From: an uncultured Synergistaceae bacterium
Lineage (GTDB): Bacteria; Synergistota; Synergistia; Synergistales; Synergistaceae
Length of the DNA: 64,000 nucleotides
Direction: 5' to 3'
NCBI GenBank assembly: GCA_964522805.1
Contig: CAZFWP010000001.1
Coordinates: 4,474 to 68,473, forward strand
Part shown: one piece after another, positions 7,009 through 46,259 of the stretch
Layout of the letters: the number at the start of each line of letters is the position of its first letter
Position numbering within the stretch: the stretch's first letter is position 1
Notes under the pieces: generated by a model
The model's input: the letters and a program-made list of their open reading frames with translations, nothing else
The model's database searches: none
Told to the model about the DNA's origin: nothing
Position numbers and translations under genes: made by a program

Positions 7009-7031
7009 TCTTAATACCGGAGGTTATGCTC

Positions 7032-7373: not shown

Positions 7374-7375
7374 GC

Positions 7376-10428: not shown

Positions 10429-10524
10429 GCACGGAGTGCTGCATCTTCACACAGGTTGAGTATTGGAAACACGGAAAACAAAAAAATATAATATTAAGAA
10501 GCTAATAAAAAGGAGTTGTTCAAT

Positions 10525-10941
10525 ATGTTCGGTTTGGCAATTTGCTGCGCAACAGTAGCAGCCATGATGGGTATCGGGTATTTAATGCAGCGCAAGGGGT
10601 ACAAGGGCAGCCGCGCAGTATATTCGGCCAGCCTTGGAATTTCCTCTTTCATGGTTTTCTCAGGGGCAGTGATAGCATTGACATCGCACCCCGCATTTGC
10701 TGAAGCGGCGGCAGCTCCCCTTGGAACAGGAGCAGGCATGGGCTTCATTGCGGCAGCTATTTCAACAGGACTCGCCTGCCTCGGAGCTGGGCTCGCAGTC
10801 GCCAGCGTCGGCTCAGCAGCTCTGGGACTTGTCGGAGAAAAACCCGAAATGCTCGGAACCACGCTTATCTACCTTGGGCTTTCAGAAGGTATCGCCATTT
10901 ACGGCGTTATCGTTTCCCTGCTTATCCTTGGCCGCCTTTAG
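10525..10941 (+). CDS. atpK: V-type ATP synthase proteolipid subunit K (c-ring)
   Basis: Gly/Ala-rich hairpin GLACLGAGLAVASVGSAALGLVGEKPE...LGLSEGIAIYG with the essential Glu. ATG 10525 lies 9 nt after AGGAG; the track's TTG 10516 abuts the SD. Confidence 0.85.
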   Translation: MFGLAICCATVAAMMGIGYLMQRKGYKGSRAVYSASLGISSFMVFSGAVIALTSHPAFAEAAAAPLGTGAGMGFIAAAISTGLACLGAGLAVASVGSAALGLVGEKPEMLGTTLIYLGLSEGIAIYGVIVSLLILGRL

Positions 10942-10959
10942 TGGAGACCAGAATCTGAA

Positions 10960-11268
10960 ATGAAAGCATACCTTGTGAGCGACAACCATGACTCGCTGGT
11001 CGGCATGAGACTGGCCGGTATTCCCGGTTGCCTTGTTCACACATCCGATGAGGCTTTCGCAGCCATAGATAACGCGATCAGAACTCCTGATCTCGCGATT
11101 CTGGCTATAACCGAAAAAGCAGCTGAGATGGCACCGGATATAATTCAGCAGCTCCGTGAACGCGGAGAACTGCCTCTTGTTGTCGAAATACCTGACAGAT
11201 TCGGTACAAAAAGGGGTTCTGATTTTCTGACCCGGTACGTACAGGAAGCCATTGGGGTGAAAATGTGA
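10960..11268 (+). CDS. atpF: V-type ATP synthase subunit F
   Basis: 102 aa. MKAYLVSDNHDSLVGMRLAGI is the typical subunit F start, and operon context agrees. Confidence 0.85.
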   Translation: MKAYLVSDNHDSLVGMRLAGIPGCLVHTSDEAFAAIDNAIRTPDLAILAITEKAAEMAPDIIQQLRERGELPLVVEIPDRFGTKRGSDFLTRYVQEAIGVKM

Positions 11269-11882
11269 TGAAGGAAGTTTCAAGCGAAAAAATAGGAACA
11301 CTGAGAGATATTATTCTCGACAAAGCCGACGGAGAAAAAAAATCTATAGTGGCATCCGCCCAGCGCGAAGCGGACGATTGGCTCGTAAAAGAAACAGAGA
11401 AATTACAGCGGGAAACAAATCTCATTCTTCAGGATTCGCGGAAACGCGCTGAAGATATCCGGCGCAGACAGATTCTCTCTGCCGAAAGAGAAAAAGCGAC
11501 AGAGACTCTTCGCCTTCAAAACCGCATTCTCTCTGACGCGCTCGGAAGATTACAGGACAGGCTTGTTCATTTAAGAGACAGGGACGACTATCTGGAGATC
11601 CTTACAGGAATGTGCCTTGAGGCTGTTTCATCGCTCAAAGGCGTCAGCTCGTTAAAATTCCGTCTCTCAGCTGTGGACCTTAGTCTCGCCGATAAAGTGA
11701 TAGCTAATATGCGCAGCGCCGCTTCGGATGTCGAGCTTACTTTCGATCCGGAACCGGCCCCCATACTCGGCGGATGCTGGGTATCAACAACAGATAATCG
11801 CAGGCAGGTCAATCTGGACTGGCAGAGTTTGACACAGGAGATGGCAGATACACTGGCTGAACGGCTCCTGCCTTTGCTTTAG
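11265..11882 (+). CDS. atpE: V-type ATP synthase subunit E
   Basis: 205 aa. Charged coiled-coil N-terminal half and globular C-terminus. Overlaps the subunit F stop. Confidence 0.8.
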   Translation: MMKEVSSEKIGTLRDIILDKADGEKKSIVASAQREADDWLVKETEKLQRETNLILQDSRKRAEDIRRRQILSAEREKATETLRLQNRILSDALGRLQDRLVHLRDRDDYLEILTGMCLEAVSSLKGVSSLKFRLSAVDLSLADKVIANMRSAASDVELTFDPEPAPILGGCWVSTTDNRRQVNLDWQSLTQEMADTLAERLLPLL

Positions 11883-11895
11883 GGAGGAATGAACT

Positions 11896-13701
11896 TTGGA
11901 GTCCCCAAATAATAACGCCCAGGTTCTCAAAGAGGGCATTGTCACCTTTGTCAACGGGCCTGTTATAAAAGCGATGAACATGCGTGATTTCGCGATGCGC
12001 GAGGTTGTGCATGTCGGGCCTAAGAAACTTATGGGCGAGATCATTAGCATGGACGGTGATAACGCCACAATTCAGGTCTATGAAGATACAGATGGTCTGA
12101 AGATTGACGAGAAAGTGCATGGCACGGGCGAGGCTTTGTCAATAGAGATTGGCCCCGGACTGATCGGCAGCTTCTTTGATGGTATCGGCCGCCCTCTTGA
12201 CGCTCTTCTCGAAGAAGAGGGAATGTATATCTCCCCCGGTACTTCGGTAAATATGATTAACAGAGAAAAGGTATGGGATGTCACCCCGGTAGCAAAAGCA
12301 GGCGACCTTATAACCCCCGGAATGGTGTTGGCCACCATTCAAGAAACACCGCTGCTGCTTCACAGGATAATGGCTCCTTTGGGCGTCGAGGGAGAAATCA
12401 CTTGGATAATTCCTGCCGGCAGACATAAGGGGTCAACTGACGTAGCAAAGGTGAAAGACGCCTTCGGACGCGAGGCATCTATCCCGATGATCCAGCGTTG
12501 GCCTGTCAGAACACCGAGGCCATACAGAGAACGTCTGCTGCCCAACGAACCTTTTGTCACAGGTCAGCGCGTCATTGATGGTTTGTTCCCCATTGCCAAG
12601 GGAGGCACCGCCTGCATACCCGGCGGATTCGGCACAGGCAAGACAGTAACCCAGCACCAGCTCGCCAAGTGGGGCGACGCACAGGTCGTTATTTACATTG
12701 GCTGCGGCGAGCGAGGCAATGAGATGACAGACGTGCTTGAGCAGTTCCCTGTATTGGAAGACCCCCGCTCCGGGCGCCCTCTGATGGAGCGGACAATATT
12801 GATAGCCAATACATCCAATATGCCTGTCGCAGCTCGTGAAGCCTCTATTTACACAGGTATCACCATTGCTGAGTACTTCCGCGATATGGGCTACGACGTC
12901 GCCATTATGGCCGACTCCACGTCACGTTGGGCAGAGGCTCTGCGCGAACTTTCCGGGCGTTTGGAAGAGATTCCGGCGGAAGAGGGCTTCCCCGCTTATC
13001 TGCCCAGCCGGCTTGCGGAATTTTATGAACGCGCTGGACGAGTGGTGACTCTCGGCGGAGAAAACGGCAGCGTCTCTGTAATCGGAGCAGTATCACCTCC
13101 AGGCGGAGACTTCACCGAGCCGGTAACCAGACATACAAAGAGATTTATTCGCTGCTTCTGGGGATTGGACAAAAACCTCGCCAACGCACGTCACTATCCG
13201 GCTATATCTTGGATCGACTCTTACAGCGAATATGCTGATGAGGTTAACGGTTGGTTCTGCACCAATGTAGACCCGCGCTGGGGAGATGTCAGAGATGAGG
13301 TCCGCCATATACTTGCTGAAGACACCAAAGTTCAGCAGGTCATTAAGCTAGTCGGCGAAGATGTTCTTCCTGACGACCAGAGACTGGTAGCCTTTACAGC
13401 ATTTCTGATTAAGAACGGATATTTGCAGCAAAACTCCTTTAACCAGGATTCGTATTCACCGCCGGCAAAGGGCTTTGAGATTTTGGATCTGATTCTTGAT
13501 TTTAACCACAAGGCAATGGAATTGATTCATAAGGGTATTCCTATTTCCCTTATTAAGGAAGATGAATCCATCGATGCGATCACACACCTTCGTGAGTTTG
13601 ACGCTGAGGACAAGAATGGATTTGATGATGTGCGCAAGCGTATTGACGCTCACTTAACAAGAGTCGCATCTGAACGCACCAGAAAGTTGGGAGGGAAATA
13701 G
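11896..13701 (+). CDS. atpA: V-type ATP synthase catalytic subunit A
   Basis: 601 aa. P-loop PGGFGTGKTV, the A-specific insertion, and GERGNEM are present. Confidence 0.95.
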   Translation: MESPNNNAQVLKEGIVTFVNGPVIKAMNMRDFAMREVVHVGPKKLMGEIISMDGDNATIQVYEDTDGLKIDEKVHGTGEALSIEIGPGLIGSFFDGIGRPLDALLEEEGMYISPGTSVNMINREKVWDVTPVAKAGDLITPGMVLATIQETPLLLHRIMAPLGVEGEITWIIPAGRHKGSTDVAKVKDAFGREASIPMIQRWPVRTPRPYRERLLPNEPFVTGQRVIDGLFPIAKGGTACIPGGFGTGKTVTQHQLAKWGDAQVVIYIGCGERGNEMTDVLEQFPVLEDPRSGRPLMERTILIANTSNMPVAAREASIYTGITIAEYFRDMGYDVAIMADSTSRWAEALRELSGRLEEIPAEEGFPAYLPSRLAEFYERAGRVVTLGGENGSVSVIGAVSPPGGDFTEPVTRHTKRFIRCFWGLDKNLANARHYPAISWIDSYSEYADEVNGWFCTNVDPRWGDVRDEVRHILAEDTKVQQVIKLVGEDVLPDDQRLVAFTAFLIKNGYLQQNSFNQDSYSPPAKGFEILDLILDFNHKAMELIHKGIPISLIKEDESIDAITHLREFDAEDKNGFDDVRKRIDAHLTRVASERTRKLGGK

Positions 13702-13704
13702 CCG

Positions 13705-15081
13705 ATGGCACAGCCTGAATATATAGGTGTTAAAGATATAGACGGCCCTTTTATTCTCTTAGAAAACGTCTCCGGTGTCGGCTATGGCGAACTTGTCAAC
13801 ATCAAAGACAGCAAGGGTAATATCCGCCACGGACAGGTAAAGTCTCTCAGCGAAAAAGCGACGCTGGTCCAGGTCTTCACCGGTACAGAAGACTTGGTTC
13901 CCAATACCACAAAGGTACGCTTTCTCGGCAAACCGCTTGAGGTGCACCTCTCAAAAAATATGCTCGGAAGAACTTTTAACGGCTTAGGGGAACCTCGGGA
14001 CGGCTGCGGTGAGATTTTCGGCGGCAAGAAGGTTAATATTAACGGACTGCCTCTTAACCCTATGGCACGCCAGTACCCGAAAGACTTTATTCACACCGGC
14101 ATTTCGGCTATTGACACACTGACGACTCTGATCCGTGGGCAGAAACTGCCGATATTCTCCGGCAACGGCCTGCCTCACAACCAGCTTGCGGTTCAAATAG
14201 CCACTCAGGCTAAAATTATGGGTTCTGAGGATTTCGCTGTCGTCTTCGCCGGCATCGGCATCAAGCATGATGACGCCGCCTACTTTACGCAGGAGCTTTC
14301 TTCGCGCGGACACAGCAACAACATCGTCACCTTCCTTAATCTAGCCGATGACCCTGTTATTGAGCGTATCGCCACACCGCGTATGGCTCTTTCAACAGCT
14401 GAGTATCTGGCATACGAACTGGGTCTTCACGTTCTGGTCGTCATTACAGACATGACAAGCTACTGCGAAGCTCTCCGCGAACTCGGAGTCGCGGCAGGCG
14501 AAGTTCCCAGCAGAAAGGGCTATCCCGCCTACCTCTACAGCGACTTAGCATCGCTCTATGAGCGAGCGGGAGTCGTTCGCGGAGTTGAGGGCAGCGTTAC
14601 TCAGATACCGATACTGACAATGCCCAATGACGACATAACGCACCCGATCCCTGACCTTACAGGTTTCATCACCGAAGGGCAGATAGTTCTTTCAAGAGAC
14701 CTTGACGCGAAAAACATTTATCCGCCGATTGACATTCTCACAAGCCTCTCCCGCCTGATGAAGGACGGCATCGGTAAGGGCTTCACACGTGAAGACCATC
14801 CCAGTGTATCCAGCCAGCTTTTCGCCTCCTACAGCCGTGTGCAGGAAGTCCGGTCCCTCGCCAGTGTTGTCGGTGAAGACGAGCTTTCTAAGAATGACAA
14901 GCTCTCTTTGGAATTCGGACACCTTTTTGAGGAGAAATTCCTTAAACAAGGCAAGGAAGACGACAGAGAAATCGGTTTCTCCTTGGATATGTCATGGGAT
15001 ATTCTCTCCTCCTTGCCGCGCAGCGAGCTGACACGTGTCTCACTAGCCGACATTCAGGAACATATTAAAAAAAGCGACTAG
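13705..15081 (+). CDS. atpB: V-type ATP synthase subunit B
   Basis: 458 aa. Typical B-subunit sequence ([10 protein letters not shown]..., [15 protein letters not shown]). Confidence 0.95.
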
Positions 15082-16808: not shown

Positions 16809-17606
16809 TTAATCCCAAGATAGCTTCGGCACCGCATCCAGAAGCGAGCAGGTATAGGGATTTTGCGGGTGACTGAGCACCTCAGCTGCAACGCCCTCTT
16901 CGCAAACCATCCCATCCTTCATTACCGCTATTTTGGCTGCGGCACGTCCCGCCAGCAAGAGGTCATGAGTAACAAAGATTAGAGACATGCCCAATTTGGT
17001 GCGACGTTCGAGAACTTCGATGATTTCTCCTCTGGTGGAAACATCTTGCATCGAGGTCGGCTCATCGCATAAGAGCAGTTTGGGCGAGAGCATCAACGCT
17101 CTGGCTATTTCTACCCTCTGTCTTTGACCGCCTGAGAGGCTAACGGCGCGTGATGCCAAAATTCTCTCGTCCTTAAGTCCCAATTCAGCAAGCAGCCCCG
17201 CCGCCCGCTCCGCACGCTCGGACTTTGTCAGAGGCGAAGCGGCTATTATGGCCGGTTCTATGACGGATTCCATCACCGTAAGCCCGGGCGGTATCGCACC
17301 ATAAGGGTCTTGGGGAATGTAGCCGCACATTCTGCGAAGACGGTTAAAATTCTCCGCGGGCAATTTTCCTGTATCCGTACCTAACAGAAAGATAGTACCG
17401 GACTCTCGGGGCACAAGCCCCATAACAGCGCGCATTAAGGTCGTTTTACCGCTGCCCGATTCGCCTACGACCGCAATTGAGTCGCCGCGGTGAAGTTGCA
17501 GCGATACGTCGTTGACAGCTTTATGAGGAAGTCCTTTTTTTGATGTGAAGGAGACTGTTACTTTGTCTATTTTCAGTATCAAATCATTTTCCGCCGTATT
17601 GATCAT
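16809..17606 (-). CDS. ABC transporter ATP-binding protein (peptide/nickel/opine family, short form)
   Basis: Walker A GESGSGKTT, signature LSGGQRQR, Walker B LLLCDEPTS. Confidence 0.9.
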   Translation of the reverse strand: MINTAENDLILKIDKVTVSFTSKKGLPHKAVNDVSLQLHRGDSIAVVGESGSGKTTLMRAVMGLVPRESGTIFLLGTDTGKLPAENFNRLRRMCGYIPQDPYGAIPPGLTVMESVIEPAIIAASPLTKSERAERAAGLLAELGLKDERILASRAVSLSGGQRQRVEIARALMLSPKLLLCDEPTSMQDVSTRGEIIEVLERRTKLGMSLIFVTHDLLLAGRAAAKIAVMKDGMVCEEGVAAEVLSHPQNPYTCSLLDAVPKLSWD

Positions 17607-17615
17607 CTACACCTC

Positions 17616-18386
17616 CTACAGCATTGCCTTAACAAGTGACGCCGTGTAGCTGCGGCGCGGGCTTTCTATTATTTGCCTAGGTGTTCCCGACTCAACCAAT
17701 TGTCCATCCTTCATAACCAAGAGATTATCGCACACTGAAGCCGCCATCGGCAGATCGTGAGTAACCAGTAAGATAGTCAGCCCCTTTTCTTGGCGCAAAC
17801 GGGCTAAGAGCTTAAGGATACCGGCTTGAGTAACCACATCGAGAGCTGTTGTCGGCTCGTCGGCAAACAGCATCGTAGGAGAGCAGGCAAGAGCCAAAGC
17901 TATCGCAGCCCGCTGTTTTTGTCCTCCTGAAAGTTCATGTGGGTAACGCCCGGCCAAATCTTTAGGCAGACCTACCTCCTCCAGCAAAGAAGAAATCTTT
18001 GCCGCTGCCGCCGCTTTTTTGATGCCAAGGTGTATATCGAGAACTTCGGCGATATGGCGCCCAATTGTTAGTACGGGCGTGAAGGAGTTCAGCGCCCCTT
18101 GAGGAACGAGAGCCAGTTCTTTCCAGCGATGGCGGCGAATGACGCTATCTTCCATCGCCGCTAGGTTTTCACCGCGCCAAAGGATCTCTCCGTAGATAGA
18201 GCTCCCCTGAGGCAGCAGTCCCAAAGAGGCAGAGATGATTGTGCTTTTACCGCTTCCCGACTCGCCGACAAGAGCGGAAAAAGAGCCTCTAAAGAGGGCA
18301 AAGGAGACGTCACTAACTGCCTCTGAGGGAGAATCTTTATAACGAACGCGAAGGTTTCTCACTTCAAACACTTTTGCCGCCCCCAA
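17616..18386 (-). CDS. ABC transporter ATP-binding protein (peptide/nickel/opine family, short form)
   Basis: Walker A GESGSGKST, signature LSGGQKQR, Walker B MLFADEPTT. Confidence 0.9.
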   Translation of the reverse strand: MGAAKVFEVRNLRVRYKDSPSEAVSDVSFALFRGSFSALVGESGSGKSTIISASLGLLPQGSSIYGEILWRGENLAAMEDSVIRRHRWKELALVPQGALNSFTPVLTIGRHIAEVLDIHLGIKKAAAAAKISSLLEEVGLPKDLAGRYPHELSGGQKQRAAIALALACSPTMLFADEPTTALDVVTQAGILKLLARLRQEKGLTILLVTHDLPMAASVCDNLLVMKDGQLVESGTPRQIIESPRRSYTASLVKAML

Positions 18387-19542
18387 GTCTTGGATCGATA
18401 AGCTCTTCCAAATAGCGTCCGATATCCATAAAGATTAAACAGATAAAGACAATACCGATTCCAGGAGGCAGCAGCAGCCACCAAGCTCCCTCAGTAAAGG
18501 CACCGAAAGAGTGAGCTTCGTGCAGCATTCTTCCCCATGATATCAGCCTAGGGTCTGAAAGGCCGAGAAAAGCCAAACCTGCCTCAGAGAGAATCGCCCC
18601 CGGCACGCCAAGAGCCAAATTGGCAAGAAGGATTGGCGCCGTCTCGGGCACTAAGTGGCGAAAGAGGATGTAGCTTCTTTTAGCTCCTAAAGCCTTCAAA
18701 CCTTCTACCCAGGGGCTTTCACGAACGGTAAGCACCAAAGAACGGACAGAACGCGCTGTGCCCATCCAGGAGAAGATAGATAGTATCAAAACCATCTGCC
18801 AAAGTCCCTTCCCCCATACTCCCGCAAGCACCATCAAGATGGGCAAGGTGGGAATGGAAAGCAGAATGTCCACAGTCCTCATAATCAAGGCATCGGTCCA
18901 GCCTCCCACATAGCCTGCGCCGAGTCCGAGCCCAAGCCCCAAAAGGCTGGCTATCAGTGTGGCAGCGATGCCGATAATCAACGAAGTTCTGATGCCGTAA
19001 ATCAACATGAGAAAGACGTCTCTGCCTCTTTGATCGGTGCCGAGCAAACCATGCCTTGTGCCAGGAAGGGAGAGCCTTAAATCCACAAAGTCCGCTCCGC
19101 TGACATCAAGCGCATAGCTGCCGCAGGAGGGAAAAAGTTTACTCAGGCTGCTGCCGATTAAAGGAACACCTATCTGCTGTTTAAAAAGCATGTCCCGTCC
19201 GTCAAGGTTTATATAGTAGATCGACTGTCCTTGAAGCTCAGAGAGCACAGTCTCCCCAGCAGGCGAACGCCAGGTGAGCCGCACCGTAGATTGGGGCTTC
19301 GCCTTTATCTCTCCATTTAGAGCAAATATCGCCGGAGGCAGATAGTGCCAATCAAACGACAGCTCTTTTGTCAAAAAGTGATATTCGCAGTCGGGCGCCA
19401 TTGTACGGTTCCACCACAGCGGTCTGGCAAAGGGGGCTCCCGCTGTGTCTGTGGGGTGCCCTTTCATCAGCATCGGCGCAAACATTCCCACCAGGACGAT
19501 GATGATAAAGGCGATGATGCTCTTCCGCTTTAAGATACTCAT
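18364..19542 (-). CDS. ABC transporter permease (DppC/NikC-like) with an N-terminal extracytoplasmic extension of about 170 aa
   Basis: The C-terminal part of about 220 aa is a BPD-type permease core (GTDQRGRDVF..., EAA-like loop SPWVEGLKALGA). The first TM is followed by a long non-hydrophobic segment. Confidence 0.85.
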   Translation of the reverse strand: MSILKRKSIIAFIIIVLVGMFAPMLMKGHPTDTAGAPFARPLWWNRTMAPDCEYHFLTKELSFDWHYLPPAIFALNGEIKAKPQSTVRLTWRSPAGETVLSELQGQSIYYINLDGRDMLFKQQIGVPLIGSSLSKLFPSCGSYALDVSGADFVDLRLSLPGTRHGLLGTDQRGRDVFLMLIYGIRTSLIIGIAATLIASLLGLGLGLGAGYVGGWTDALIMRTVDILLSIPTLPILMVLAGVWGKGLWQMVLILSIFSWMGTARSVRSLVLTVRESPWVEGLKALGAKRSYILFRHLVPETAPILLANLALGVPGAILSEAGLAFLGLSDPRLISWGRMLHEAHSFGAFTEGAWWLLLPPGIGIVFICLIFMDIGRYLEELIDPRLGGGKSV

Positions 19543-20519
19543 CAGTTGTTCTCTCCCTCAATCCTGACACGCGGATCTGCAAAGCCATAGACTATATCCG
19601 CAGCGAGGTTGCAAAACACCGTCATCAAAGCTAAAAGATAAAAAGCTGCGCCTGCTGAAGGGTAGTCATGTCCGGAAACAGCTTCAAGCAGAAAGGTGCC
19701 TACCCCGTACAGAGAGAAGACCGACTCGGTGATCACTGCACCAGAGACCAGTCCCGGTAGCGACATCAGTAAAATTGTCAATATAGGCGGCAATATGGTG
19801 CGGAAGGCGTGCCCATAGACCACGCGGCGCGGCGGCAGCCCGCGCGCCCTAGCCATCAGCACGAAGTCCTCTCCCAACGCTCTGACCATCAGATTTCTCA
19901 CATAAAGAGCCCAGCCGCCAAATCCCATCAAAGTCAGAGAAAGCACCGGCAAGGCCAAATGGCGGCAATAGTCGTACAGAAGCGGCCAGAAGTCCGTGGG
20001 AGGAGGAACAGAGAGACTGCCGCGCAGAGGAAAGATGGCAAAGGTGCGCGCAAGCAGCATTAGAAGCACCAGCTGCACAAAAAAACCGGGAAAAGAGGAG
20101 GTAACAGCTCCGGCGCGCAGCACCAGCCGCTCGATGAATTTGCCGCGATTGAGAGCAGCTTTGATTCCCAGCCAAATACCCAAAACTGCGGATAAAAACA
20201 TGGACATAGACATCAAAATAACCGTTGAGGGCAGGCGCGAGAGCAGTTCATCCCACACCGGCTTACGGCTTAAAAACGAGAGTCCGAAGCTGAATGTCAG
20301 CATCTGCTTAATATAGAGAAAGAACTGTTCCGCAAGCGGCCTGTCAAGCCCGTAAAGCTCCCGTAGCCTATCTTTTGCCTCCGGAGAAAAATTAGGGTCA
20401 ATAATGGTGCTGACCGCATCTCCCGGCATGATGCGAAAGAGAATAAAATTTAAAATCAGCACCGCTGCCAACACTGCTAAAGAAGACAGCAGGCGCCGTA
20501 AAAGCCATGAGCGCTTCAT
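19542..20519 (-). CDS. ABC transporter permease (DppB/NikB-like)
   Basis: 325 aa. Typical N-terminus LRRLLSSLAVLAAVLILNFILFRIMPGD and a permease core. Confidence 0.9.
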   Translation of the reverse strand: MKRSWLLRRLLSSLAVLAAVLILNFILFRIMPGDAVSTIIDPNFSPEAKDRLRELYGLDRPLAEQFFLYIKQMLTFSFGLSFLSRKPVWDELLSRLPSTVILMSMSMFLSAVLGIWLGIKAALNRGKFIERLVLRAGAVTSSFPGFFVQLVLLMLLARTFAIFPLRGSLSVPPPTDFWPLLYDYCRHLALPVLSLTLMGFGGWALYVRNLMVRALGEDFVLMARARGLPPRRVVYGHAFRTILPPILTILLMSLPGLVSGAVITESVFSLYGVGTFLLEAVSGHDYPSAGAAFYLLALMTVFCNLAADIVYGFADPRVRIEGENN

Positions 20520-22201
20520 CGCACCGCCGCCTTTTTATTTTTCAACATTCTAAAATAGGGGTTTTTTTTCATCATCACATATTCACCCGGCCTGTACTCT
20601 TCAAGCATAAAGGGACCGCAGCCCACTAGCCCTACCGGCCCTGACTTGCCGCTTTTATCCAAAGGGTTCCAGTTCTGCCAATCTGTAATGCGGTCAAGCA
20701 CCCGCTTAGGCATACAGCCAATACCGCCGATATTATCCAAATACCAATAACTGACGCCCTTCATCTTCACTGTGAGAGTGTTGCCCGATACCGTCACCGC
20801 ATCGACATTTTTTACTGAGTCGAAAAAACGGGGAATTTTATTTTTGTGCAAAAAATCTATCGTGGCCTTCACATCGGCGGCAGTTAACGGCGTGCTGTCA
20901 TTCCAGCGCAGCCCGGGCGCAATTTGAAATACCAGCTCCGTGTGTGCCTCATTACCGCGCCCAACGGTCTTAACTTTCCAACTCTCCGCCAAAGCCGGCA
21001 TCTCTTCCAAAGTAAATGGGTTCATCCCGACCATAGAGTCGTATATCAGTCCCAGCACCTGCCACGAGTAGGCACTGGAGGCAACAAAGGGATTTAAATT
21101 CCGCGGTTCGTCGGGCAAAACCATGTTAAGCGGCCTGGAACGTCCGTCCTTTGGCTCAGCCATCATCAAAGTCCAAACATTATCGACAGTGATTTTATCC
21201 GTTGTAAGGATATTTTTCCATAAACGTGAGACACCCGCCACGGAAAAGCGGCTGTAAATAGGCACGGAAGGGACAAGGTCGGCCAGCAGGCGCTGAACCT
21301 TATCGGACGCAGCCTTGGCAGCCTGCTTGTCTTTGGCGAATCGTAAATGCAGCAAAGCTTCGTCAAGGCGCTTATCATTGGTGGCGGTGACGTTGTAGCC
21401 GCCGTCTACAATCATTGAGCTATGGTAAAAAGAGTATAGGGAATCAGGATTACGTCCCATACTCCAAGCAAGAACCGCCATGGAATAGTCTTTGCGGTCA
21501 AGCTTAGCGATCATCGCGGAAAAATCCATCGGTTCAGACTCCACGGGAAACCCTATAGCCCGCAAAGAGTCGGCAATTTGCTCCGCCATCTCCGCTGTCG
21601 TCGGAGCTACATTGGCAAGCGGCGTAAGAATTTTTAGCGGCGGGAGCGTCTTACCATCGGGCGTCACCAATATTCCCTTGATATTCCACGAGTAGCCTCT
21701 TGATTTCAGCTTCTCCCTCGCTTTTTCGCGGTTGAAAATTGTTTTGCCGCTCTCAGGCAGAGACCACGGAGAAACAGGAGGCAGCCAGCTGTTTATCGGT
21801 TCGCAGTAGCCGGAATATATCGTACGGACGATGTTGTTGCGGTCAATAGCCTCCGCCGCGGCCTGTCTAACATATTTATCATTCCAAGGAGCTTTTTGGT
21901 TGTTCAGAAGCAGAAAAAAGGCATGATAACCTCTGGCAAGCGACATTTGGAATTTGGTGTTACGGCTGAGCCGTTCAATATCAGATGGTCTGACAATTTC
22001 ACTGATAATATCGAGCTCTCCCCGCTCCGCCGCCATTATCTGGGCATCGGAATTTCTAATGATAAGCATACATAATTTATCTGTGCGGGGACCGTAAACA
22101 TTGGATGGGTCAAATGGTTCACCAGCAAATAAAGATGCCGGCACGGCGAAAAAAAGCAGTGCGGAGATAAATATAATAATTTTTGTTTTGTCTAAAGGCA
22201 T
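20516..22201 (-). CDS. ABC transporter substrate-binding protein, family 5 (peptide/nickel type), secreted
   Basis: 561 aa. N-terminal signal-like hydrophobic segment, with size and sequence typical of SBP family 5. First structural gene of the operon. Confidence 0.85.
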   Translation of the reverse strand: MPLDKTKIIIFISALLFFAVPASLFAGEPFDPSNVYGPRTDKLCMLIIRNSDAQIMAAERGELDIISEIVRPSDIERLSRNTKFQMSLARGYHAFFLLLNNQKAPWNDKYVRQAAAEAIDRNNIVRTIYSGYCEPINSWLPPVSPWSLPESGKTIFNREKAREKLKSRGYSWNIKGILVTPDGKTLPPLKILTPLANVAPTTAEMAEQIADSLRAIGFPVESEPMDFSAMIAKLDRKDYSMAVLAWSMGRNPDSLYSFYHSSMIVDGGYNVTATNDKRLDEALLHLRFAKDKQAAKAASDKVQRLLADLVPSVPIYSRFSVAGVSRLWKNILTTDKITVDNVWTLMMAEPKDGRSRPLNMVLPDEPRNLNPFVASSAYSWQVLGLIYDSMVGMNPFTLEEMPALAESWKVKTVGRGNEAHTELVFQIAPGLRWNDSTPLTAADVKATIDFLHKNKIPRFFDSVKNVDAVTVSGNTLTVKMKGVSYWYLDNIGGIGCMPKRVLDRITDWQNWNPLDKSGKSGPVGLVGCGPFMLEEYRPGEYVMMKKNPYFRMLKNKKAAVR

Positions 22202-22776
22202 TCTTCACCAGCACCTTTGATTATGACCTCGCGCATGGGCACAGGGCGGCCGGTAATTATCTTAATCATCAGCCGTCCGGCAAGAACTCCGGTCTCAAAT
22301 GTGGGAATAAAAGACTCCCCATCCGAGGTTATTGAAAGGGTTTCCTCTCTTTTAAAACCGAGAGTGACAACCGGCACAGAAACTGCCTGGGGATAATTAT
22401 CCGGGTCTCCCCATATCAGTCCCTCCACGCCTCTGTCGTTAAGCTTGCCGAATTCGCGGGCGGCACGGCGAGCGTCTCCGTCAGTACACTTGATAAGAAT
22501 ATCATATTCTGAATTGGCCATGGAACGGTCAAGTCCCGCAATAAATGCCGCAGCCCAAGAAACATTCAGCTCTTTAAAAACAACGCCAACAAAACCGCTG
22601 CGGCTGGTGGAGAGGTTGCGGGCATTGCGGTCCAATCTGTAATTAAGGAGGTGAACCGCTTCCATAACTTTAATTTTGGTCTTTTCAGAAATTCTGTGGT
22701 CACCTTTGAGCACTCGGCTGACTGTAGCTTTATCAACCCCTGCCTCTTTCGCCACATCCTGCATTGTCGCTTTCAT
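22192..22776 (-). CDS. LacI-family HTH protein, C-terminally truncated (HTH plus the first part of the effector domain only)
   Basis: MKATMQDVAKEAGVDKATVSRVLKG... is the canonical LacI HTH. The protein stops after about 194 aa, near where a full-length LacI would begin its C-subdomain. The stop overlaps the SBP start by 10 nt. The 44 codons upstream in the track ORF look non-coding. Confidence 0.7.
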   Translation of the reverse strand: MKATMQDVAKEAGVDKATVSRVLKGDHRISEKTKIKVMEAVHLLNYRLDRNARNLSTSRSGFVGVVFKELNVSWAAAFIAGLDRSMANSEYDILIKCTDGDARRAAREFGKLNDRGVEGLIWGDPDNYPQAVSVPVVTLGFKREETLSITSDGESFIPTFETGVLAGRLMIKIITGRPVPMREVIIKGAGEECL

Positions 22777-22815
22777 AACATCACCCATTCTGTGCAACCG
22801 ATTGAATTTAAACAT

Positions 22816-22844
22816 ATTATAGGTTATCGCTCCAGAATGGTCGA
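22816..22844 (-). promoter_or_regulatory. Candidate promoter of the LacI-like/peptide ABC operon
   Basis: Minus strand reads TCGACC (22844..22839), 17 nt, TATAAT (22821..22816). It is about 40 nt upstream of ATG 22776. Confidence 0.3.
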
Positions 22845-22999
22845 TAGGAAAACCTGCTTTTCTAAGGAAACACTGATGAAATAGCAGAGCCTTCGGTAAT
22901 AGCAGCATACAATCCGTTGATTATAGACGGAAAGCCGAAATCTATTATTTCGTGCGTCAAGTGATTTTTGCAAAACTTTGATTTGCCCAACCAAACTTA

Positions 23000-25399: not shown

Positions 25400-25733
25400 G
25401 AGCGCCAACACCTCCGGGGTTTTCTCCGTTTTGTACGGCATCATTGGCAAAGTCCGATTCCGGGTGCATCGAGATCGCCTTCACCGGGCATATCTCTGCG
25501 CAGATGCCGCAGCCCTTGCAGTAAAAAAGATTAACTCCGCATACCTTGGATTCATTATCTGTGAGTACGGAAAGGTCAGGGCATTGCACCCAGCATTTTA
25601 GGCAGGAGATACATTTGTCCAGGTCAAAAACAGGTCTCATACTACGCCACAACCCTGTCTTTACCTCTCGGGAGGAAGCACCGAAGGTCACCGTGCCGGG
25701 GGTCACATCCTGCCAGCATTTTTGTTTGCTCAT
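25389..25733 (-). CDS. 2-oxoacid:ferredoxin oxidoreductase, delta subunit (2x[4Fe-4S] ferredoxin)
   Basis: CISCLKCWVQCPD and CKGCGICAEICPV motifs. Confidence 0.9.
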   Translation of the reverse strand: MSKQKCWQDVTPGTVTFGASSREVKTGLWRSMRPVFDLDKCISCLKCWVQCPDLSVLTDNESKVCGVNLFYCKGCGICAEICPVKAISMHPESDFANDAVQNGENPGGVGAHVK

Positions 25734-26302
25734 GCCAGCACCGCCTCCTCGCGTCCTCTGTAAATAGCGCGGCGGTTGGCTTCCAAAACCTTGGGCGGAA
25801 GCTGCTTCATTTTATTGGTAAAGTGGTCGGCGAAGTTTTCTATCGGCACATCAGTAAATACCAAAGAGAGCGCACCTAGCAGCGGTGCATTGGGACGATT
25901 TTGCCCCAGTTCCTCCAGCGTAATTTTTGTGGCATCAACGACAAGAACCTTAGCCGCATCCGAAAGCTTAAGCTTAGCCCTCAAGGTAAGAGCGTCTTCC
26001 GGTGTGTTGACAAGGTAAACTGCGTCACTGGCGCTGCCTTCGCAAGGATTAGCGCTTTCTACCATTGTCGGGTCAACCACTACTACTATATTGGGATTCT
26101 GTACACCGCAGCGGCGGCGTATAGGGCTGTCGGAAACTCTGTTATATGCTCTCATGGGAGCACCCTGACGCTCCGCGCCGTACTCAGGAAACGCCTGCAC
26201 ATGTTTGCCTCCCTCAAAAAGGACTTCAGCCAATATTGCTGAGGCGCTTTTTGCTCCCTGTCCGCCGCGGCCGTGCCATCTTACTTCCACTGTCTTTGCC
26301 AT
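25730..26302 (-). CDS. 2-oxoacid:ferredoxin oxidoreductase, gamma subunit
   Basis: MAKTVEVRWHGRGGQGAKSAS is the canonical gamma N-terminus. GAGGAGGA lies 7 nt before ATG 26302. Substrate class (pyruvate, 2-oxoisovalerate or other) cannot be assigned from sequence alone. Confidence 0.9.
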   Translation of the reverse strand: MAKTVEVRWHGRGGQGAKSASAILAEVLFEGGKHVQAFPEYGAERQGAPMRAYNRVSDSPIRRRCGVQNPNIVVVVDPTMVESANPCEGSASDAVYLVNTPEDALTLRAKLKLSDAAKVLVVDATKITLEELGQNRPNAPLLGALSLVFTDVPIENFADHFTNKMKQLPPKVLEANRRAIYRGREEAVLA

Positions 26303-26324
26303 CATAATTCCTCCTCGAATTTGC

Positions 26325-26361
26325 AAAAAAAAATGGAGCCCTTCAAAAAGTGAAGGGCTCC
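26325..26361 (-). terminator. Intrinsic terminator (attenuator) inside the 5' leader of the oxidoreductase operon
   Basis: Minus strand reads GGAGCCCTTC-ACTTTTT-GAAGGGCTCC-A-TTTTTTTTT. This is a perfect 10-bp stem with a U9 tract, ending about 8 nt before the gamma-subunit SD. Confidence 0.8.
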
Positions 26362-26384
26362 ACAACTCGTTTAGATATACAGCG

Positions 26385-26462
26385 CTAAGCGCCGATCCAC
26401 CGAGGAGGAGCCGCGTTAATAATTATAATAATAATGTTCTGGTTGATGATATTATTCAACAT
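26385..26462 (-). CDS. Ile-rich leader peptide (25 aa): MLNNIINQNIIIIIINAAPPRWIGA
   Basis: Own translation; it is below the track cutoff. GGGAGG (26477..26472) lies 9 nt before ATG 26462 and the TAG stop is at 26387..26385. 9 of 25 codons are Ile, six of them consecutive (ATT ATT ATT ATA ATT ATT). It is flanked upstream by a promoter and downstream by the terminator. Confidence 0.7.
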   Translation of the reverse strand: MLNNIINQNIIIIIINAAPPRWIGA

Positions 26463-26496
26463 TATAAGCAACCTCCCTCTCGAGCAGAATGGCGGA

Positions 26497-26525
26497 ATCT
26501 TAACATTAAACAATGAGCCTGTCAA
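26497..26525 (-). promoter_or_regulatory. Sigma70-type promoter of the leader/oxidoreductase operon
   Basis: Minus strand reads TTGACA (26525..26520), 17 nt, TAAGAT (26502..26497). Confidence 0.6.
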
Positions 26526-26729
26526 ATATTTTTAACAAAAAACTGGATATCAGAATAAAAATCAAGTGTTAAAACAACGCATTTTCACTCTTTTACCTTT
26601 TATAACAAGATATCATTCGTATATAGGCAAAACATTATAAGGTAAACAACAAAGATTGAATCAACATCAATGTTTCTGAAAAAGAGAGGGGTGAGATAAA
26701 TGTAATCCCTCGAACACAGATGTTAGCCA

Positions 26730-31638: not shown

Positions 31639-32331
31639 CTAACCTCTTATTGTGATTCCCGGCAAAAAATCTTGCAATTTCTCTGGCGATACCGCATCCA
31701 TCTGCATAAATGTTGGATTTAGACAGTTTACCGGCTTAAAGCACTGAACAAACCAATGCCTATCGTCACACAGCTCTTTTCTGATGGCCCTAAGATCTTC
31801 TTCTGTAAGCAAAGCCGGCACATATGTGGTTCTGAATTCATAGTCTGGAGCAAATTTTTTGATCAGGGAAATGCTTTCACGAAGTCTTTCAGCTAAGATA
31901 TCGGCACCGGTAACCCTTTTTAAAATCCTCTCATCAAAGGGTGCTTTGACGTCCATTGCCACATAAGAGACCAATTTTTGCTCCAGCACAGATGCCAGCA
32001 GCTCTGGAAAAGATCCGTTGGTATCCAGCTTCACCGCCAGCCCACAGCTCTTTATTTCCATAAGCAAATCAGTCAGACCATTCCACAAAAACGGTTCTCC
32101 CCCGCTTATCACCACCCCGTCAAGAAAGTTGCGTCGGCGCAGGATATCTTTAAAGACCTCCTCAGCACAAAGAGGCTCTGTCTGAGAGAGTACTAGCGTG
32201 CTGTTATGGCACCACGGACAGCGAAAATTACAGCCACTGGTAAAAATAACCGCGGCGACATGCCCGTTCCAATCAAGAAAAGAGGACGGAAGATACCCCC
32301 CGACAGTAAGTCCATCAAGCATCAAAAGCAC
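31639..32331 (-). CDS. nrdG: Anaerobic ribonucleoside-triphosphate reductase activating protein (radical SAM)
   Basis: CNFRCPWCHN cluster motif, about 230 aa, directly downstream of nrdD. Confidence 0.85.
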   Translation of the reverse strand: MLLMLDGLTVGGYLPSSFLDWNGHVAAVIFTSGCNFRCPWCHNSTLVLSQTEPLCAEEVFKDILRRRNFLDGVVISGGEPFLWNGLTDLLMEIKSCGLAVKLDTNGSFPELLASVLEQKLVSYVAMDVKAPFDERILKRVTGADILAERLRESISLIKKFAPDYEFRTTYVPALLTEEDLRAIRKELCDDRHWFVQCFKPVNCLNPTFMQMDAVSPEKLQDFLPGITIRG

Positions 32332-32349
32332 CCCTTCTATTTAAGAAAC

Positions 32350-32380
32350 GGCTGAAAGCGGAGATGTTCCGCCATCAGCC
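32350..32380 (-). other. Hairpin between nrdD and nrdG
   Basis: Minus strand reads GGCTGATGGCGGA-acatc-TCCGCTTTCAGCC (6+5 bp with a 2x2 internal loop), followed by GTTTCTT. Confidence 0.4.
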
Positions 32381-32413
32381 GTGCCGTTGTTTTTGTAAAA
32401 TTAGCTCCGCTGT

Positions 32414-34549
32414 TTAAGCAGGTAAGGTCACGGGACGGCGGCAGCGATCTTTAAGTTCGCCGCGCTTTCCGGCGTTCCAAGAAGACGTGCGAGTAAAGTA
32501 ACCTGTTACGCGAGTTATTCCATCCACATCAGAAGAGCCGCAGAGAGAACAGCTGTCAGAAAGCCCTCTTTCTATGTGGTTGCACTCATTACAGATGGTG
32601 AATTCGGGGCTGAACGCCACCTGTGCGTTTTCTGAGTAGCGGAAGGTCTTAATTACAAACGATGCCAGTGCTCTGGGATCGGGTTTATGTTCGCCCATCC
32701 ATACATGAGTAATGGCTCCGGCTTTGATCATCGGGTGCATCTCGCCTTCGCGTGTCACCTTGTCGATAGGGTCCTGAACCAACTGATAGTTGAGATGGGT
32801 GCTGTTTGTATAATAAATTTCTCCTGTTTCAAAATTTCCCTTAATGTACTTTTTGGCGGTTTCCGGGTACGCGCGCAAGTCCAACTTGGCAAAACGCAAA
32901 GCCGTGCTCTCAGCCGGAGTCTGTTCTAGCACTATTTTTAGCCCAAGGCGCTCTGAGAGCTGCTGACATTTAAGATCCATGTACTGAATTACCGCCTTGC
33001 CAAGCTGCTCAGCCTCATCACTCTCATGAAGCTGAGAACCGGTAACAGCCTGCACCATCTCGTTAAGACCAAGTATGCCGATCAAATGGCTGGCTTTTCT
33101 CATTCTCAAGTAACTTTCATCATCATGAGACACGCACAGCGCCGCAAGCGGTCCGTCAAGCCCCAAGTCCAGGATGCTTTTGATGAAACGCCTTTTTTCG
33201 AGGTGCCCTTTCGCCGCCAGCTCCATCTCTTCATCAATGATATCAAAGAGCAGCTCCTGATCGCCGTTGCACTTGTAGGCAGCGCGCGGCAGGTTCAAAG
33301 TAATGTTCTGCAGCGCACAGTAGCGCATCTTCCAAGGGTGTTTAGCCTCGTTGAGGTCTTCCGGCGTCAGCTCAAATGAGAGACGGCAGCACTCAGACAG
33401 TTTGGCGACACCGCCGCGGTCAAAGACAAAATAGGTATTGCCCTTTTCCGATGCGAGAGTGCAGGCCAAGTCAAGAAATTCTTCCCAGCCCTCTTCTTTG
33501 AAGAAATAGTCGGTAATGTGCAGCAGCGGTTTGGGGAAGAAAAATGGCTGTCCTCTGCTGTCTCCCTGCATATAGACATCAAAGAGCGCTTTGACGAACA
33601 TCTTCGCTTCTTTATCGTAGTCTCCATATACTTTTCCTGTAAACTTGCCGCCAGGGCCAATAGCGGGAACATCGCGGAAGTGATTGGGAATTTCGTAGTA
33701 CAGATTGATGTCGGTAAAGGCCACCTGCCCGCCGCGCCCTCCCGCGAGCTGGTTAAACTCAAAAATAAGCTGCTGAGCTAACTGTTTATGCTGCTCATAG
33801 CTCCAGCCCACAAGGTAGGGAGCAAAGTACATATTGATGGCATCCCAGCCTATTGCTCCGGCAAAGTGGTTTTGCAGCACGGAGGTCATCTTCAAGATGT
33901 GAGCCAACAGAACATCTGCGTGCTTAGCCGGGTTTGATACGCTGGTAATTGAGGGGATATTAAGTCCGTAGCGGGCGACATAGGCCACGCTCTGACCTGA
34001 GCAATATGGTCTGTTGACCATGCCAAGGTCGTGAAGGTGGATATCTCCTTTCAGGTGCGCGTCGGCCACATCTTTGCTGAATACCTTGGTCAGCGCGTAT
34101 TCTTTAAGCACCATCTCCGCGATGGAGAGGTTGATGGATTCAGGGTTGTGGCTGGTGTTGCTGTTTTCTTTATTTTTACGCAGCATCATTTTTTCCAGGT
34201 CATGGACAGGCAGACCGATACGGCTGTGGTCAGCCAGCTTCGCGCCAAGTCCGCGCTGGAAGAGCTTAACGTTTACCATTTCACGGATGATGGTAGTTGT
34301 CACATGGCCGCGTCCGTATTTAAGCAGTTCTCCTTCAACTTCTAAGGCAATGCCGCCGGCAGTAGCCGGGTCTAAGCCTGCTTCAATAATCAGCGCGTCT
34401 CTGATTCTGCTGGCATCCCAGGGAGAACTTTCTTCCTGAGCCAGAGCATCAACCATTAAGGCAAGGTCTGTGGATTCGCCGGTATTTTCAAAAAGATGTC
34501 CCTGTTTGCCAAAATATGATTCTGTATCCATAACAGGCTCAATTCCCAT
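32414..34549 (-). CDS. nrdD: Anaerobic ribonucleoside-triphosphate reductase, class III
   Basis: About 711 aa. C-terminal Zn-ribbon CNECNH...CSLCGS and glycyl-radical motif RVTGYF. AGGAGG lies 9 nt before ATG 34549; the track starts at an upstream TTG. Confidence 0.9.
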   Translation of the reverse strand: MGIEPVMDTESYFGKQGHLFENTGESTDLALMVDALAQEESSPWDASRIRDALIIEAGLDPATAGGIALEVEGELLKYGRGHVTTTIIREMVNVKLFQRGLGAKLADHSRIGLPVHDLEKMMLRKNKENSNTSHNPESINLSIAEMVLKEYALTKVFSKDVADAHLKGDIHLHDLGMVNRPYCSGQSVAYVARYGLNIPSITSVSNPAKHADVLLAHILKMTSVLQNHFAGAIGWDAINMYFAPYLVGWSYEQHKQLAQQLIFEFNQLAGGRGGQVAFTDINLYYEIPNHFRDVPAIGPGGKFTGKVYGDYDKEAKMFVKALFDVYMQGDSRGQPFFFPKPLLHITDYFFKEEGWEEFLDLACTLASEKGNTYFVFDRGGVAKLSECCRLSFELTPEDLNEAKHPWKMRYCALQNITLNLPRAAYKCNGDQELLFDIIDEEMELAAKGHLEKRRFIKSILDLGLDGPLAALCVSHDDESYLRMRKASHLIGILGLNEMVQAVTGSQLHESDEAEQLGKAVIQYMDLKCQQLSERLGLKIVLEQTPAESTALRFAKLDLRAYPETAKKYIKGNFETGEIYYTNSTHLNYQLVQDPIDKVTREGEMHPMIKAGAITHVWMGEHKPDPRALASFVIKTFRYSENAQVAFSPEFTICNECNHIERGLSDSCSLCGSSDVDGITRVTGYFTRTSSWNAGKRGELKDRCRRPVTLPA

Positions 34550-35018
34550 TACGATGTGCCTCCTTGTCTTCAAGCAGCTTCGCTATTTCATGAGTAAAAC
34601 TCGATATATCTGTAAATTCTCTATAAACGGACGCAAACCTGACATAAGCGACCTTATTTATCTTGCGGAGCTCGTCAGAGGCCAGCTCTCCGATAGTAGT
34701 AGCAGAGACCTCTCCCTGCCCGGAAGTGCGCAGCTTATCCTCAATGTGAGCCACGGCCTCTTCGATCTTCTCTAGCTGAACAGGCAATTTCTCACAGGCT
34801 CTTTGGAGCCCCCTGGTAAGCTTTTGCCTGTCAAATGCCTCTCTGCTGCCGTCCTTCTTAACTACCCAGAGATAATTTTTTTCTTCCAAACGCTCATAGG
34901 TAGTAAAACGTCCCTGACATTCCGGACATTCACGTCTGCGCCTATTGACCTTTCCGTCATCAACGCTCCTGGTCTCTATCACTCTTGTCTCCAATGCTCC
35001 GCAAACAGGACAGCGCAT
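34539..35018 (-). CDS. nrdR: Transcriptional repressor NrdR
   Basis: MRCPVCGALETRVIETR...RRRECPECQGRFTTYE zinc ribbon plus an ATP-cone. Confidence 0.95.
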   Translation of the reverse strand: MRCPVCGALETRVIETRSVDDGKVNRRRRECPECQGRFTTYERLEEKNYLWVVKKDGSREAFDRQKLTRGLQRACEKLPVQLEKIEEAVAHIEDKLRTSGQGEVSATTIGELASDELRKINKVAYVRFASVYREFTDISSFTHEIAKLLEDKEAHRNGN

Positions 35019-44595: not shown

Positions 44596-44598
44596 AGC

Positions 44599-46250: not shown

Positions 46251-46259
46251 CTGAAAAAC

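Follow-up and report, generated by a model that had tools for sequence, protein, structure and literature searches.

The ilvGMEDA, ilvBN, trp, his, leu, thr and pheA operons of enterobacteria are controlled by leader attenuators. In Firmicutes, isoleucine (Ile) T-box riboswitches precede ileS or ilv genes; they bind the tRNA directly, and translation is not involved. Leader-peptide attenuation is also known from Firmicutes, with a leucine (Leu)-rich attenuator peptide at the ilv-leu operon of S. aureus (PMC5794164), a leader-peptide attenuator at ilv-leu of Listeria (PMC5864092), and histidine (His) leaders before hisS and hisZ in bacilli (PMC2965389). As of 2010, leader peptides were held to be unknown beyond the Proteobacteria, the Actinobacteria and the reported Firmicutes cases (PMC2965389). 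Here we analyzed a 64,000-nucleotide (nt) stretch of DNA from an uncultured Synergistaceae bacterium (contig CAZFWP010000001.1). The whole stretch is called the window below, and positions given without a locus name refer to it. On its minus strand, an Ile-rich leader unit lies ahead of a four-gene por-type 2-oxoacid:ferredoxin oxidoreductase operon. Judged from the window and its relatives, the unit is probably a leader-peptide (ribosome-mediated) attenuator that senses charged tRNA-Ile and gates this operon.

A first-pass annotation of the window had described a promoter, a Shine-Dalgarno sequence, an open reading frame (ORF) of 25 codons with nine Ile, a terminator and a candidate antiterminator between the livF stop codon (26730) and the gamma gene of the operon. 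All of these elements were found where it had placed them on the minus strand (Table 1), and the coordinates and composition of the promoter, the Shine-Dalgarno sequence and the ORF agreed. The 17-nt spacer of the promoter ends in TGT, which puts a TG (extended -10) ahead of TAAGAT. With a score of 10/12, this promoter was joint highest in a 7-kb scan, and it was the sole site there with TG preceding the second hexamer. The leader peptide contains nine Ile, one Leu and no valine (Val). Six of the Ile codons are consecutive and the others stand at codon positions 5, 6 and 23. Such a six-Ile-codon run is unique in the 64-kb window and did not arise in 100 shuffles, and a scan of the whole window found no second small ORF with a comparable amino-acid run and a downstream U tract.

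Two exclusive structures can form downstream of the Ile run. The terminator hairpin (-23.3 kcal/mol, z = -6.8) had been described with a 10-bp stem; it is present with its U9 tract, which ends 8 nt before the GAGGAGG (26316-10) of the structural gene, and its stem comprises 13 pairs. The pairing proposed earlier between leader codons 17-21 and the sequence entering the terminator, GGCUCC-uc-CUCG with CGAG-uugu-GGAGCC, proved to be the minimum-energy fold of 26417-26346 (-28.2 kcal/mol, z = -3.1), and none of 200 shuffles was as good. Rfam 15 at gathering thresholds gave no match in the window, known amino-acid leaders and the T-box included. A permissive Rfam scan of 26250-26600 returned only terminator-like matches below threshold.

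The spread of the unit was surveyed with one genome per species, searched with the alpha protein of the operon; this gave 70 loci, 68 of them from Synergistota and two archaeal. Thirty-six Synergistaceae loci extend far enough upstream for the leader to be scored, and in 34 of them the unit stands ahead of the orthologous operon. All loci with sufficient upstream DNA and a gamma protein at least 75% identical carry it except one (L032). The 34 sequences belong to Synergistaceae, Synergistes, Cloacibacillus and 'Caccocola'. A thirty-fifth leader (L033), cut by a contig end, was omitted from the alignments. In metagenomes, a motif scan identified the unit ahead of this operon on 29 contigs; 28 were new, and L106 is 100% identical to the window. 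Six of the 36 motif matches in that scan were rejected as chance hits inside GC-rich coding sequence.

A promoter of the form TTGAC(A/T)-17 nt ending TGN-TAnnAT was detected in all 33 leaders with enough upstream DNA, and the Shine-Dalgarno sequence and the start codon are kept across the alignment of the leaders (A1). The 3' part of the ORF reads ...N(Q)N-IIIII(I)-N-AAPPR-(R/G)-(I/N)-G-(A/V) in the relatives. An alignment check suggested in the first-pass annotation asked whether the Ile run and the ORF persist in relatives that keep the hairpin; they do so in the 34 genomes and the 29 metagenome contigs. By these comparisons, the leader unit is not a chance occurrence. In the exceptional locus (L032:225-335), the promoter and the 5' untranslated region (UTR) are retained, and nothing but a T-rich remnant is left of the ORF, antiterminator and terminator stem; either the variant is naturally constitutive or the assembly is in error.

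More distant orthologues (58-67% identity; Aminivibrio, Thermovirga, Acetomicrobium and others) have no leader. Upstream of 16 leaderless orthologous loci, no Ile T-box or other curated RNA element was found, and only a downstream tRNA matched. In L040, L042, L046, L049, L051, L055, L056 and L068 (Thermovirgaceae-like), the leaderless operon is immediately followed by a tRNA gene at ~6180-6270 (+).

The mode of selection on the ORF was read from a codon-level comparison over 59 distinct leader sequences. The three central codons of the run encode Ile in 59/59, with ATT, ATA and ATC interchanged and ATG never used; the flanking run codons encode Ile in 53/59 and 40/59. Downstream of the run, GCG GCT ... 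GGC is invariant, including the third positions, and region 2 (Table 1) is nearly invariant as nucleotides, again with the third codon positions included. Where the 3' part of the ORF does vary, the changes alter the peptide (R/G/W; I/N/T; A/V/D/G). Since the Ile codons undergo synonymous changes only and the 3' part is fixed as RNA, the 5' half of the ORF appears to be selected for coding and the 3' half for pairing. The expectation that the peptide frame rather than the nucleotides would be conserved was thus borne out for the Ile run and failed for the 3' half, where the nucleotides are fixed and the peptide varies.

The alternative structures are also conserved. In the 34 relatives, 99.7% of the cells of the terminator are paired, and 5 of 11 pairs have changed on both sides (36 cells); both counts are far above those of shuffled and slid controls. 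When each of the 34 sequences was folded from the end of the Ile run to the terminator loop, the antiterminator was the minimum-energy fold in every one, with energies of -26.5 to -34.7 kcal/mol against -17 to -32 kcal/mol for the terminator. Its stems follow in the order GGCUCC:GG(A/G)GCC, CUCG(C):(G)CGAG, an inner helix, and a small hairpin at the stop codon. Paired cells amount to 97% in a MAFFT alignment (A2) and 95% in a model-based alignment (A3), compared with 35-50% for slid partners. Compensatory changes, for which the first-pass annotation had advised looking in the stems, thus occur in five terminator pairs and in two antiterminator pairs, CG to UA in 6-7 sequences and GC to UA in L034 (Arg to Leu). 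The sole change in the outer antiterminator helix is U-A to U-G, and it occurs when the terminator switches A-U to G-C, as is expected of a segment under two constraints. Coding and the terminator constrain this helix as well, so that it hardly varies and its covariation support is thin. In the stop-codon hairpin, 98% of the cells are paired, and the closing pair varies among CG, UG, UA and AU.

A third pairing, absent from the first-pass annotation, involves the 5' UTR. Region 1 (AUUCUGCGAG-a-GGGAG) pairs with CUCCYCCUCGNNGGAU inside the ORF, and this pairing is part of the minimum-energy fold predicted for the nascent transcript in 34/34 sequences. The mean duplex energy of regions 1 and 2 is -19.9 kcal/mol, compared with -11.9 kcal/mol for shuffled region 1 and -5.0 kcal/mol for other windows of the same leader. 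Cognate duplexes were more stable than swapped ones in 5000/5000 permutations, in which the relatedness of the sequences was not removed. On this folding evidence, the pairing of regions 1 and 2 completes a four-region attenuator. An all-against-all analysis of column covariation on A1 was discarded as too noisy and dominated by clade structure; per-sequence folding, counts on named structures and the comparison of cognate with swapped duplexes were used in its place. A local UCCY/RGGA hairpin reported by RNAalifold was rejected as a separate element, since the same positions pair with region 1 and in the inner antiterminator.

Across relatives, 22 to 204 nt separate the U tract from the gamma start. 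This spread suggests that the conserved output is termination and not occlusion of the ribosome-binding site of the gamma gene. In the window, CCUCCUCG in the leader (26401-26408, minus strand) is perfectly complementary to CGAGGAGG in the Shine-Dalgarno region of the gamma gene (26310-26317, minus strand); the same range of terminator-to-gene distances makes this complementarity probably incidental.

The elements suggest the following switch. Transcription would start ~7 nt past TAAGAT, and a ribosome would load at GGGAGG/ATG and translate the 25-codon leader. If Ile-tRNA is plentiful, the ribosome would reach the UAG and cover or unwind region 2, leaving region 3 free for region 4. Regions 3 and 4 would then form the 13-bp hairpin with its U9 tract, and RNA polymerase would halt before the gamma gene. 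A ribosome at the UAG would cover ~26402-26375, and the middle and apical parts of the antiterminator would be unwound. If Ile-tRNA is scarce, the ribosome would stall on the first codons of the six-Ile run and its body would keep region 1 from region 2; the antiterminator formed by regions 2 and 3 (-28 kcal/mol) would block the terminator, and the operon would be transcribed. With the ribosome assumed to reach ~12 nt beyond the first A-site base, and the masking geometry taken from the coordinates, an A site on Ile codons 10-13 (26435-26424) would put the ribosome edge at or upstream of 26414 and leave GGCUCC (26412-07) free. If the leader is not translated, region 1 would capture region 2 and termination would again follow. 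The stop-codon hairpin and a U-rich stretch might, as a guess, serve as a pause element that couples polymerase and ribosome. The earlier description of the locus as a full attenuator of the trp/his/ilv type, specific for Ile, is therefore upheld as to its parts: promoter, ORF, control codons, terminator and antiterminator are all present and are conserved in relatives.

Behind the leader, four overlapping or abutting genes follow in the order gamma, delta, alpha, beta (minus strand). Their products contain the domains POR, Fer4, POR_N/PFOR_II and TPP_enzyme_C, the set of a four-subunit 2-oxoacid:ferredoxin oxidoreductase of the pyruvate/2-ketoisovalerate class. The gamma protein scores 173.6 bits with TIGR02175 PorC_KorC (cut-off, 81). 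The NCBIfam Por equivalogs are the top matches, all of them under their cut-offs (PorA 472/550, PorB 337/405, PorC 184/270 and PorD 96/120 bits), so that the operon falls short of the models for pyruvate synthase PorABCD. The Vor models fall below both the Por scores and their own cut-offs (Vor alpha 344/646, Vor beta 270/405 bits). The solved chain nearest to alpha is 9bt4_B (E = 1e-82), the alpha subunit of a four-subunit pyruvate:ferredoxin oxidoreductase with the same gamma/delta/alpha/beta subunits, YPITP motif and substrate-site Arg and Ile. The YPITP motif is conserved in alpha, and so are an Arg and an Ile aligned with residues of the Desulfovibrio enzyme that presumably line its substrate pocket. 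Motifs of the substrate site are nearly identical in leader-bearing and leaderless orthologues; the sole difference is APVNIH versus APINIH. The class named in the first-pass annotation, a POR/VOR-type enzyme, was right in that this is a ferredoxin-dependent 2-oxoacid oxidoreductase, and can now be narrowed toward Por, whose models outscore Vor and whose pyruvate enzyme is the closest structure.

Table 1. Predicted features of the leader unit and of the oxidoreductase operon (positions in the window)
Feature	Position	Strand	Remarks
Sigma-70 promoter, TTGACA-17 nt-TAAGAT	26497..26525	-	Hexamers 26525-26520 and 26502-26497
Region 1, 5' UTR UCUGC-u-CGAG-a-GGGAG including the leader Shine-Dalgarno sequence	26473..26488	-	Anti-antiterminator partner of region 2
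Leader Shine-Dalgarno sequence GGGAGG	26477-26472	-	9 nt 5' of ATG at 26462
Leader ORF, 25 codons plus TAG (26387-85), peptide MLNNIINQNIIIIIINAAPPRWIGA	26385..26462	-	ORF with Shine-Dalgarno sequence and Ile run, conserved
Control codons, six consecutive Ile (ATT ATT ATT ATA ATT ATT)	26418..26435	-	Run unique in the window
Region 2, leader codons 17-23, GGCUCCUCCUCGGUGGA	26396..26412	-	Antiterminator 5' arm or partner of region 1
Small hairpin CGGCGC-UUA-GCGCUG, stop UAG in or beside the loop	26380..26394	-	Antiterminator tip
Region 3, CGAG-uugu-GGAGCC	26356..26369	-	Antiterminator 3' arm; GGAGCC also opens the terminator 5' arm
Intrinsic terminator (regions 3 and 4), 13-bp stem, 5-nt loop, U9	26325..26363	-	Stem 26363-26333, T9 26333-25
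Gamma gene, PorC-like, 190 amino acids (aa), with Shine-Dalgarno sequence GAGGAGG	25730..26316	-	ATG at 26302 or 26305; Pfam POR
Delta gene, 2x[4Fe-4S] ferredoxin-like, 114 aa	25389..25733	-	TIGR02179 PorD_KorD 94.6 bits (cut-off, 60)
Alpha gene, 397 aa	24206..25399	-	Top family PorA_Arch, 472 bits (under the cut-off of 550)
Beta gene, thiamine pyrophosphate (TPP)-binding, 309 aa	23287..24216	-	PorB 336.6 bits; Pfam TPP_enzyme_C

The same leader family was also found before a different gene. On metagenome contig L088, a leader ending in MTIIIIADAAPPRGNGG, with the same region 2 and a terminator, is followed by a 317-aa pyridoxal phosphate (PLP) enzyme that scores as a serine/threonine dehydratase or IlvA catalytic domain. 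A covariance model (R1) built from the oxidoreductase leaders also matched (E 1e-18 to 1e-23) upstream of the dehydratase gene on other contigs, whose dehydratases are 98%, 87% and 63% identical. This arrangement occurs in four lineages, one of them an Aminiphilus sp. genome, and the leaders fold into the same antiterminator and terminator alternatives as those of the oxidoreductase operon. A contig with a 72% identical dehydratase begins inside the leader and retains the terminator. In a fifth lineage, Synergistales (L116:2772-2990, +), a divergent Ile-rich leader, VDHTTETIRTIAITIAIIITSGSVSGARAG, precedes an orthologous Ser/Thr dehydratase; it has a GTG start, an AAGGAGG Shine-Dalgarno sequence and a terminator, and lacks the AAPPR motif. 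No leader is present at the dehydratase homologue P0010, whose gene stands directly behind another gene.

Two further leaders bear on how the units spread and how common they are. The promoter of azlCD, homologues of a branched-chain amino-acid transporter, is preceded at L107:4357-4560 (also L108 and L109) by an insertion that comprises a second Ile leader (run VIII only) and the initial ~100 nt of the dehydratase gene. This second copy suggests that a partial segment of the attenuator cassette was duplicated and moved. At L110:8338-8485 (+), a leader with three consecutive tryptophans (WWW), MRDALYVQNWWWQT, and a terminator-like hairpin with a U tract lie ~60 nt upstream of trpE-G-D-C-F, on the same Synergistota contig as an Ile-leader/dehydratase unit. 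A Trp leader before a trp operon suggests that leader-peptide attenuation is generally used in Synergistota.

What does the oxidoreductase do under such control? An operon switched on when Ile is short would be expected to supply Ile, with the enzyme acting as a reductive carboxylase (acyl-CoA + CO2 + reduced ferredoxin). The earlier argument that this logic suits a biosynthetic better than a catabolic role is backed by the comparative data. The described route of this kind that we favor leads from propionyl-CoA to 2-oxobutyrate by reductive carboxylation (references cited in PMC7476758, among them Buchanan 1969 and later work for a '2-oxobutyrate synthase' activity). We hold, with slightly less than even confidence, that the enzyme makes the Ile precursor 2-oxobutyrate from propionyl-CoA. 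This product is favored because the other cargo of the leader family makes 2-oxobutyrate, because the subunits are Por-like rather than Vor-like, because pyruvate:ferredoxin oxidoreductase, a pyruvate-type enzyme, has been used to carboxylate propionyl-CoA (PMC12879463), and because propionate is a product of Cloacibacillus and Synergistes in culture, where none of Ile, Leu and Val supports their growth (PMC3709534). In a more tentative extension, attenuator-cassette movement would have led to the recruitment of a Por-type oxidoreductase as the committed, Ile-regulated step of Ile synthesis, a 2-oxobutyrate synthase acting on propionyl-CoA made by the cell itself, in place of the threonine dehydratase that sister lineages have under the same leader family (non-orthologous displacement). 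Such mobility would be in line with the partial duplication of leader and gene start in L107-L109.

Several points weigh against this interpretation. We infer ribosome stalling, readthrough and the chemistry of the enzyme from the DNA, in which the elements, their conservation, their alternative pairings and their covariation can be observed directly. Stalling at the last two Ile codons would put the ribosome over part of GGCUCC. The covariation of the antiterminator comes from two pairs only; together with that of regions 1 and 2 it is modest and uncorrected for kinship, and the shuffle controls ignore phylogeny. The 2-oxobutyrate route would further depend on ilvBCDE in these genomes. Finally, the oxidoreductase is no special paralogue: other Synergistota have leaderless orthologues (58-71% identity) with essentially the same motifs at the substrate site, and the enzyme may be a general pyruvate/2-oxoacid enzyme that has come under Ile control.

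The substrate is the point at which the closest competing explanation departs from 2-oxobutyrate synthesis. The same attenuator could govern an enzyme that carboxylates 2-methylbutyryl-CoA to 2-oxo-3-methylvalerate, so that Ile would be made from exogenous 2-methylbutyrate with only a transaminase in addition. This had been the suggestion of the first-pass annotation. Rumen anaerobes and methanogens are known from physiology to make Ile from 2-methylbutyrate in this way (PMC10658910), an Ile-only leader would match an Ile-only product, ilvBCD could be dispensed with, and the habitats (gut, rumen and digesters, according to record titles) are rich in branched short-chain acids. We nevertheless consider this route unlikely. 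Por models outscore Vor models, the nearest solved enzyme acts on pyruvate, and the residue aligned with what we take to be the pocket Ile of the Desulfovibrio enzyme is still Ile. Neither the operon nor its conserved neighborhood contains a gene for acyl-CoA activation. Nothing specific was found in favor of the route, and with a dehydratase as the other cargo of the leader family, the shared product would be 2-oxobutyrate, not a C6 oxoacid.

That the attenuator is genuine and the enzyme an ordinary oxidative pyruvate/2-oxoacid oxidoreductase, with Ile scarcity as a proxy for general amino-acid starvation, appears quite improbable. Across other Synergistota, leaderless orthologues are widespread and their active-site motifs nearly the same, and the 16 leaderless loci without an upstream Ile T-box or known RNA element suggest that the ancestral role was not Ile specific. 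However, an Ile-only leader is a very specific sensor for such a purpose, the other cargo of the family is an enzyme of the Ile pathway, and none of Ile, Leu and Val supports growth of the cultured relatives; moreover, consumption of 2-oxoacids induced at Ile shortage would drain the precursors of Ile. Least credible is that no attenuation takes place, and that the ORF is spurious or encodes a hydrophobic micropeptide while the hairpin ends the upstream gene or controls gamma translation. The AAPPR-x-G motif is conserved as amino acids and, as described above, CCUCCUCG is complementary to the gamma Shine-Dalgarno region in the window. Yet the AAPPR segment shows no synonymous drift and the variable positions change the peptide, as would be expected of an RNA constraint. 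The upstream gene also varies by locus, with a consensus promoter in every case separating it from the ORF, the terminator is 22 to 204 nt away from the gamma start, and L032 loses the entire switch yet keeps promoter and operon. Synthesis of an Ile precursor, more likely 2-oxobutyrate than 2-oxo-3-methylvalerate, under an Ile-sensing attenuator is the reading we retain.

The genomic surroundings contribute nothing on the pathway. A Liv importer adjoins the operon only in the window and in its closest relative, L027, and the neighbors at five other loci are unrelated and variable (peptidase, LysR-family regulator, alanine racemase, esterase and others). The importer is thus no evidence for the branched-chain theme that had been read into it. 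A second complete Liv-type branched-chain amino-acid ATP-binding cassette (ABC) transporter operon lies at 43864-48402 (minus strand). Its 5' region, read by eye, contains no leader ORF or known RNA element, and the gap there is mostly the terminator of the upstream dnaJ. No leader was found upstream of either liv operon.

Downstream of the oxidoreductase operon, an ORF of 238 aa at 22192-22908 (minus strand) belongs to the LacI family and contains only the helix-turn-helix and a portion of the sugar-binding domain. A peptide/nickel-type ABC transporter (16809-22201) comes next, and this arrangement is conserved downstream of the operon in about a dozen close relatives. Elsewhere in the window are a V/A-type ATPase operon (6376-15081, plus strand), a xanthine-dehydrogenase-like molybdenum enzyme with a fused [2Fe-2S] domain (590-3511, minus strand) and the anaerobic ribonucleotide reductase genes nrdD/nrdG (31639-34573, minus strand). 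These three fit a strictly anaerobic fermenter of amino acids or purines.

The leader codons tell which amino acid the operon serves, and thereby put a functional label on an enzyme usually annotated as a catabolic pyruvate oxidoreductase. The operon would be a concrete gene candidate for the reductive carboxylation of acyl-CoA to Ile precursors, which is known physiologically and rarely tied to genes. If true, the displacement of the dehydratase would be the first gene-level, regulation-based assignment for a route known from labeling since the 1960s. Classical attenuation is extended to Synergistota, with Ile leaders before two enzymes and a Trp leader before the trp operon, and the covariance model of this unlisted RNA family can be used for annotating these genomes.

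The mechanism itself is classical. The RNA family, the Ile-only specificity, the regulated enzyme and the phylum appear to be undescribed: in the full texts searched, an incomplete collection, we found no Ile leader before an oxidoreductase and no leader peptides in Synergistota, nor did we find a report of a por operon under amino-acid-specific control. With the leaders of Firmicutes, the unit shares leader-peptide attenuation outside the Proteobacteria, an independent origin and a lack of mutual sequence similarity; codon specificity, lineage and cargo differ. The Ile T-box responds to the same signal, charged versus uncharged tRNA-Ile, with the same output, antitermination. In contrast to it, the leader described here would require translation, and no T-box matched in the window or upstream of the leaderless orthologues. 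The enterobacterial leaders resemble the unit in architecture. They likewise have a promoter and a short translated ORF with many regulatory codons, an antiterminator and a terminator hairpin that exclude each other, a protector pairing further upstream, and an intrinsic terminator before the first gene. The Synergistota unit differs from them in that no Rfam family matches it, by sequence or by covariance model. Its control codons are Ile only, whereas those of the enterobacterial ilv leaders are a mix of Ile, Val and Leu; the host phylum is Synergistota, and the cargo is a ferredoxin oxidoreductase instead of an ilv gene. Unlike in trp, region 1 is the Shine-Dalgarno region of the leader itself, and it is the loop separating regions 1 and 2, not region 1, that contains the control codons.

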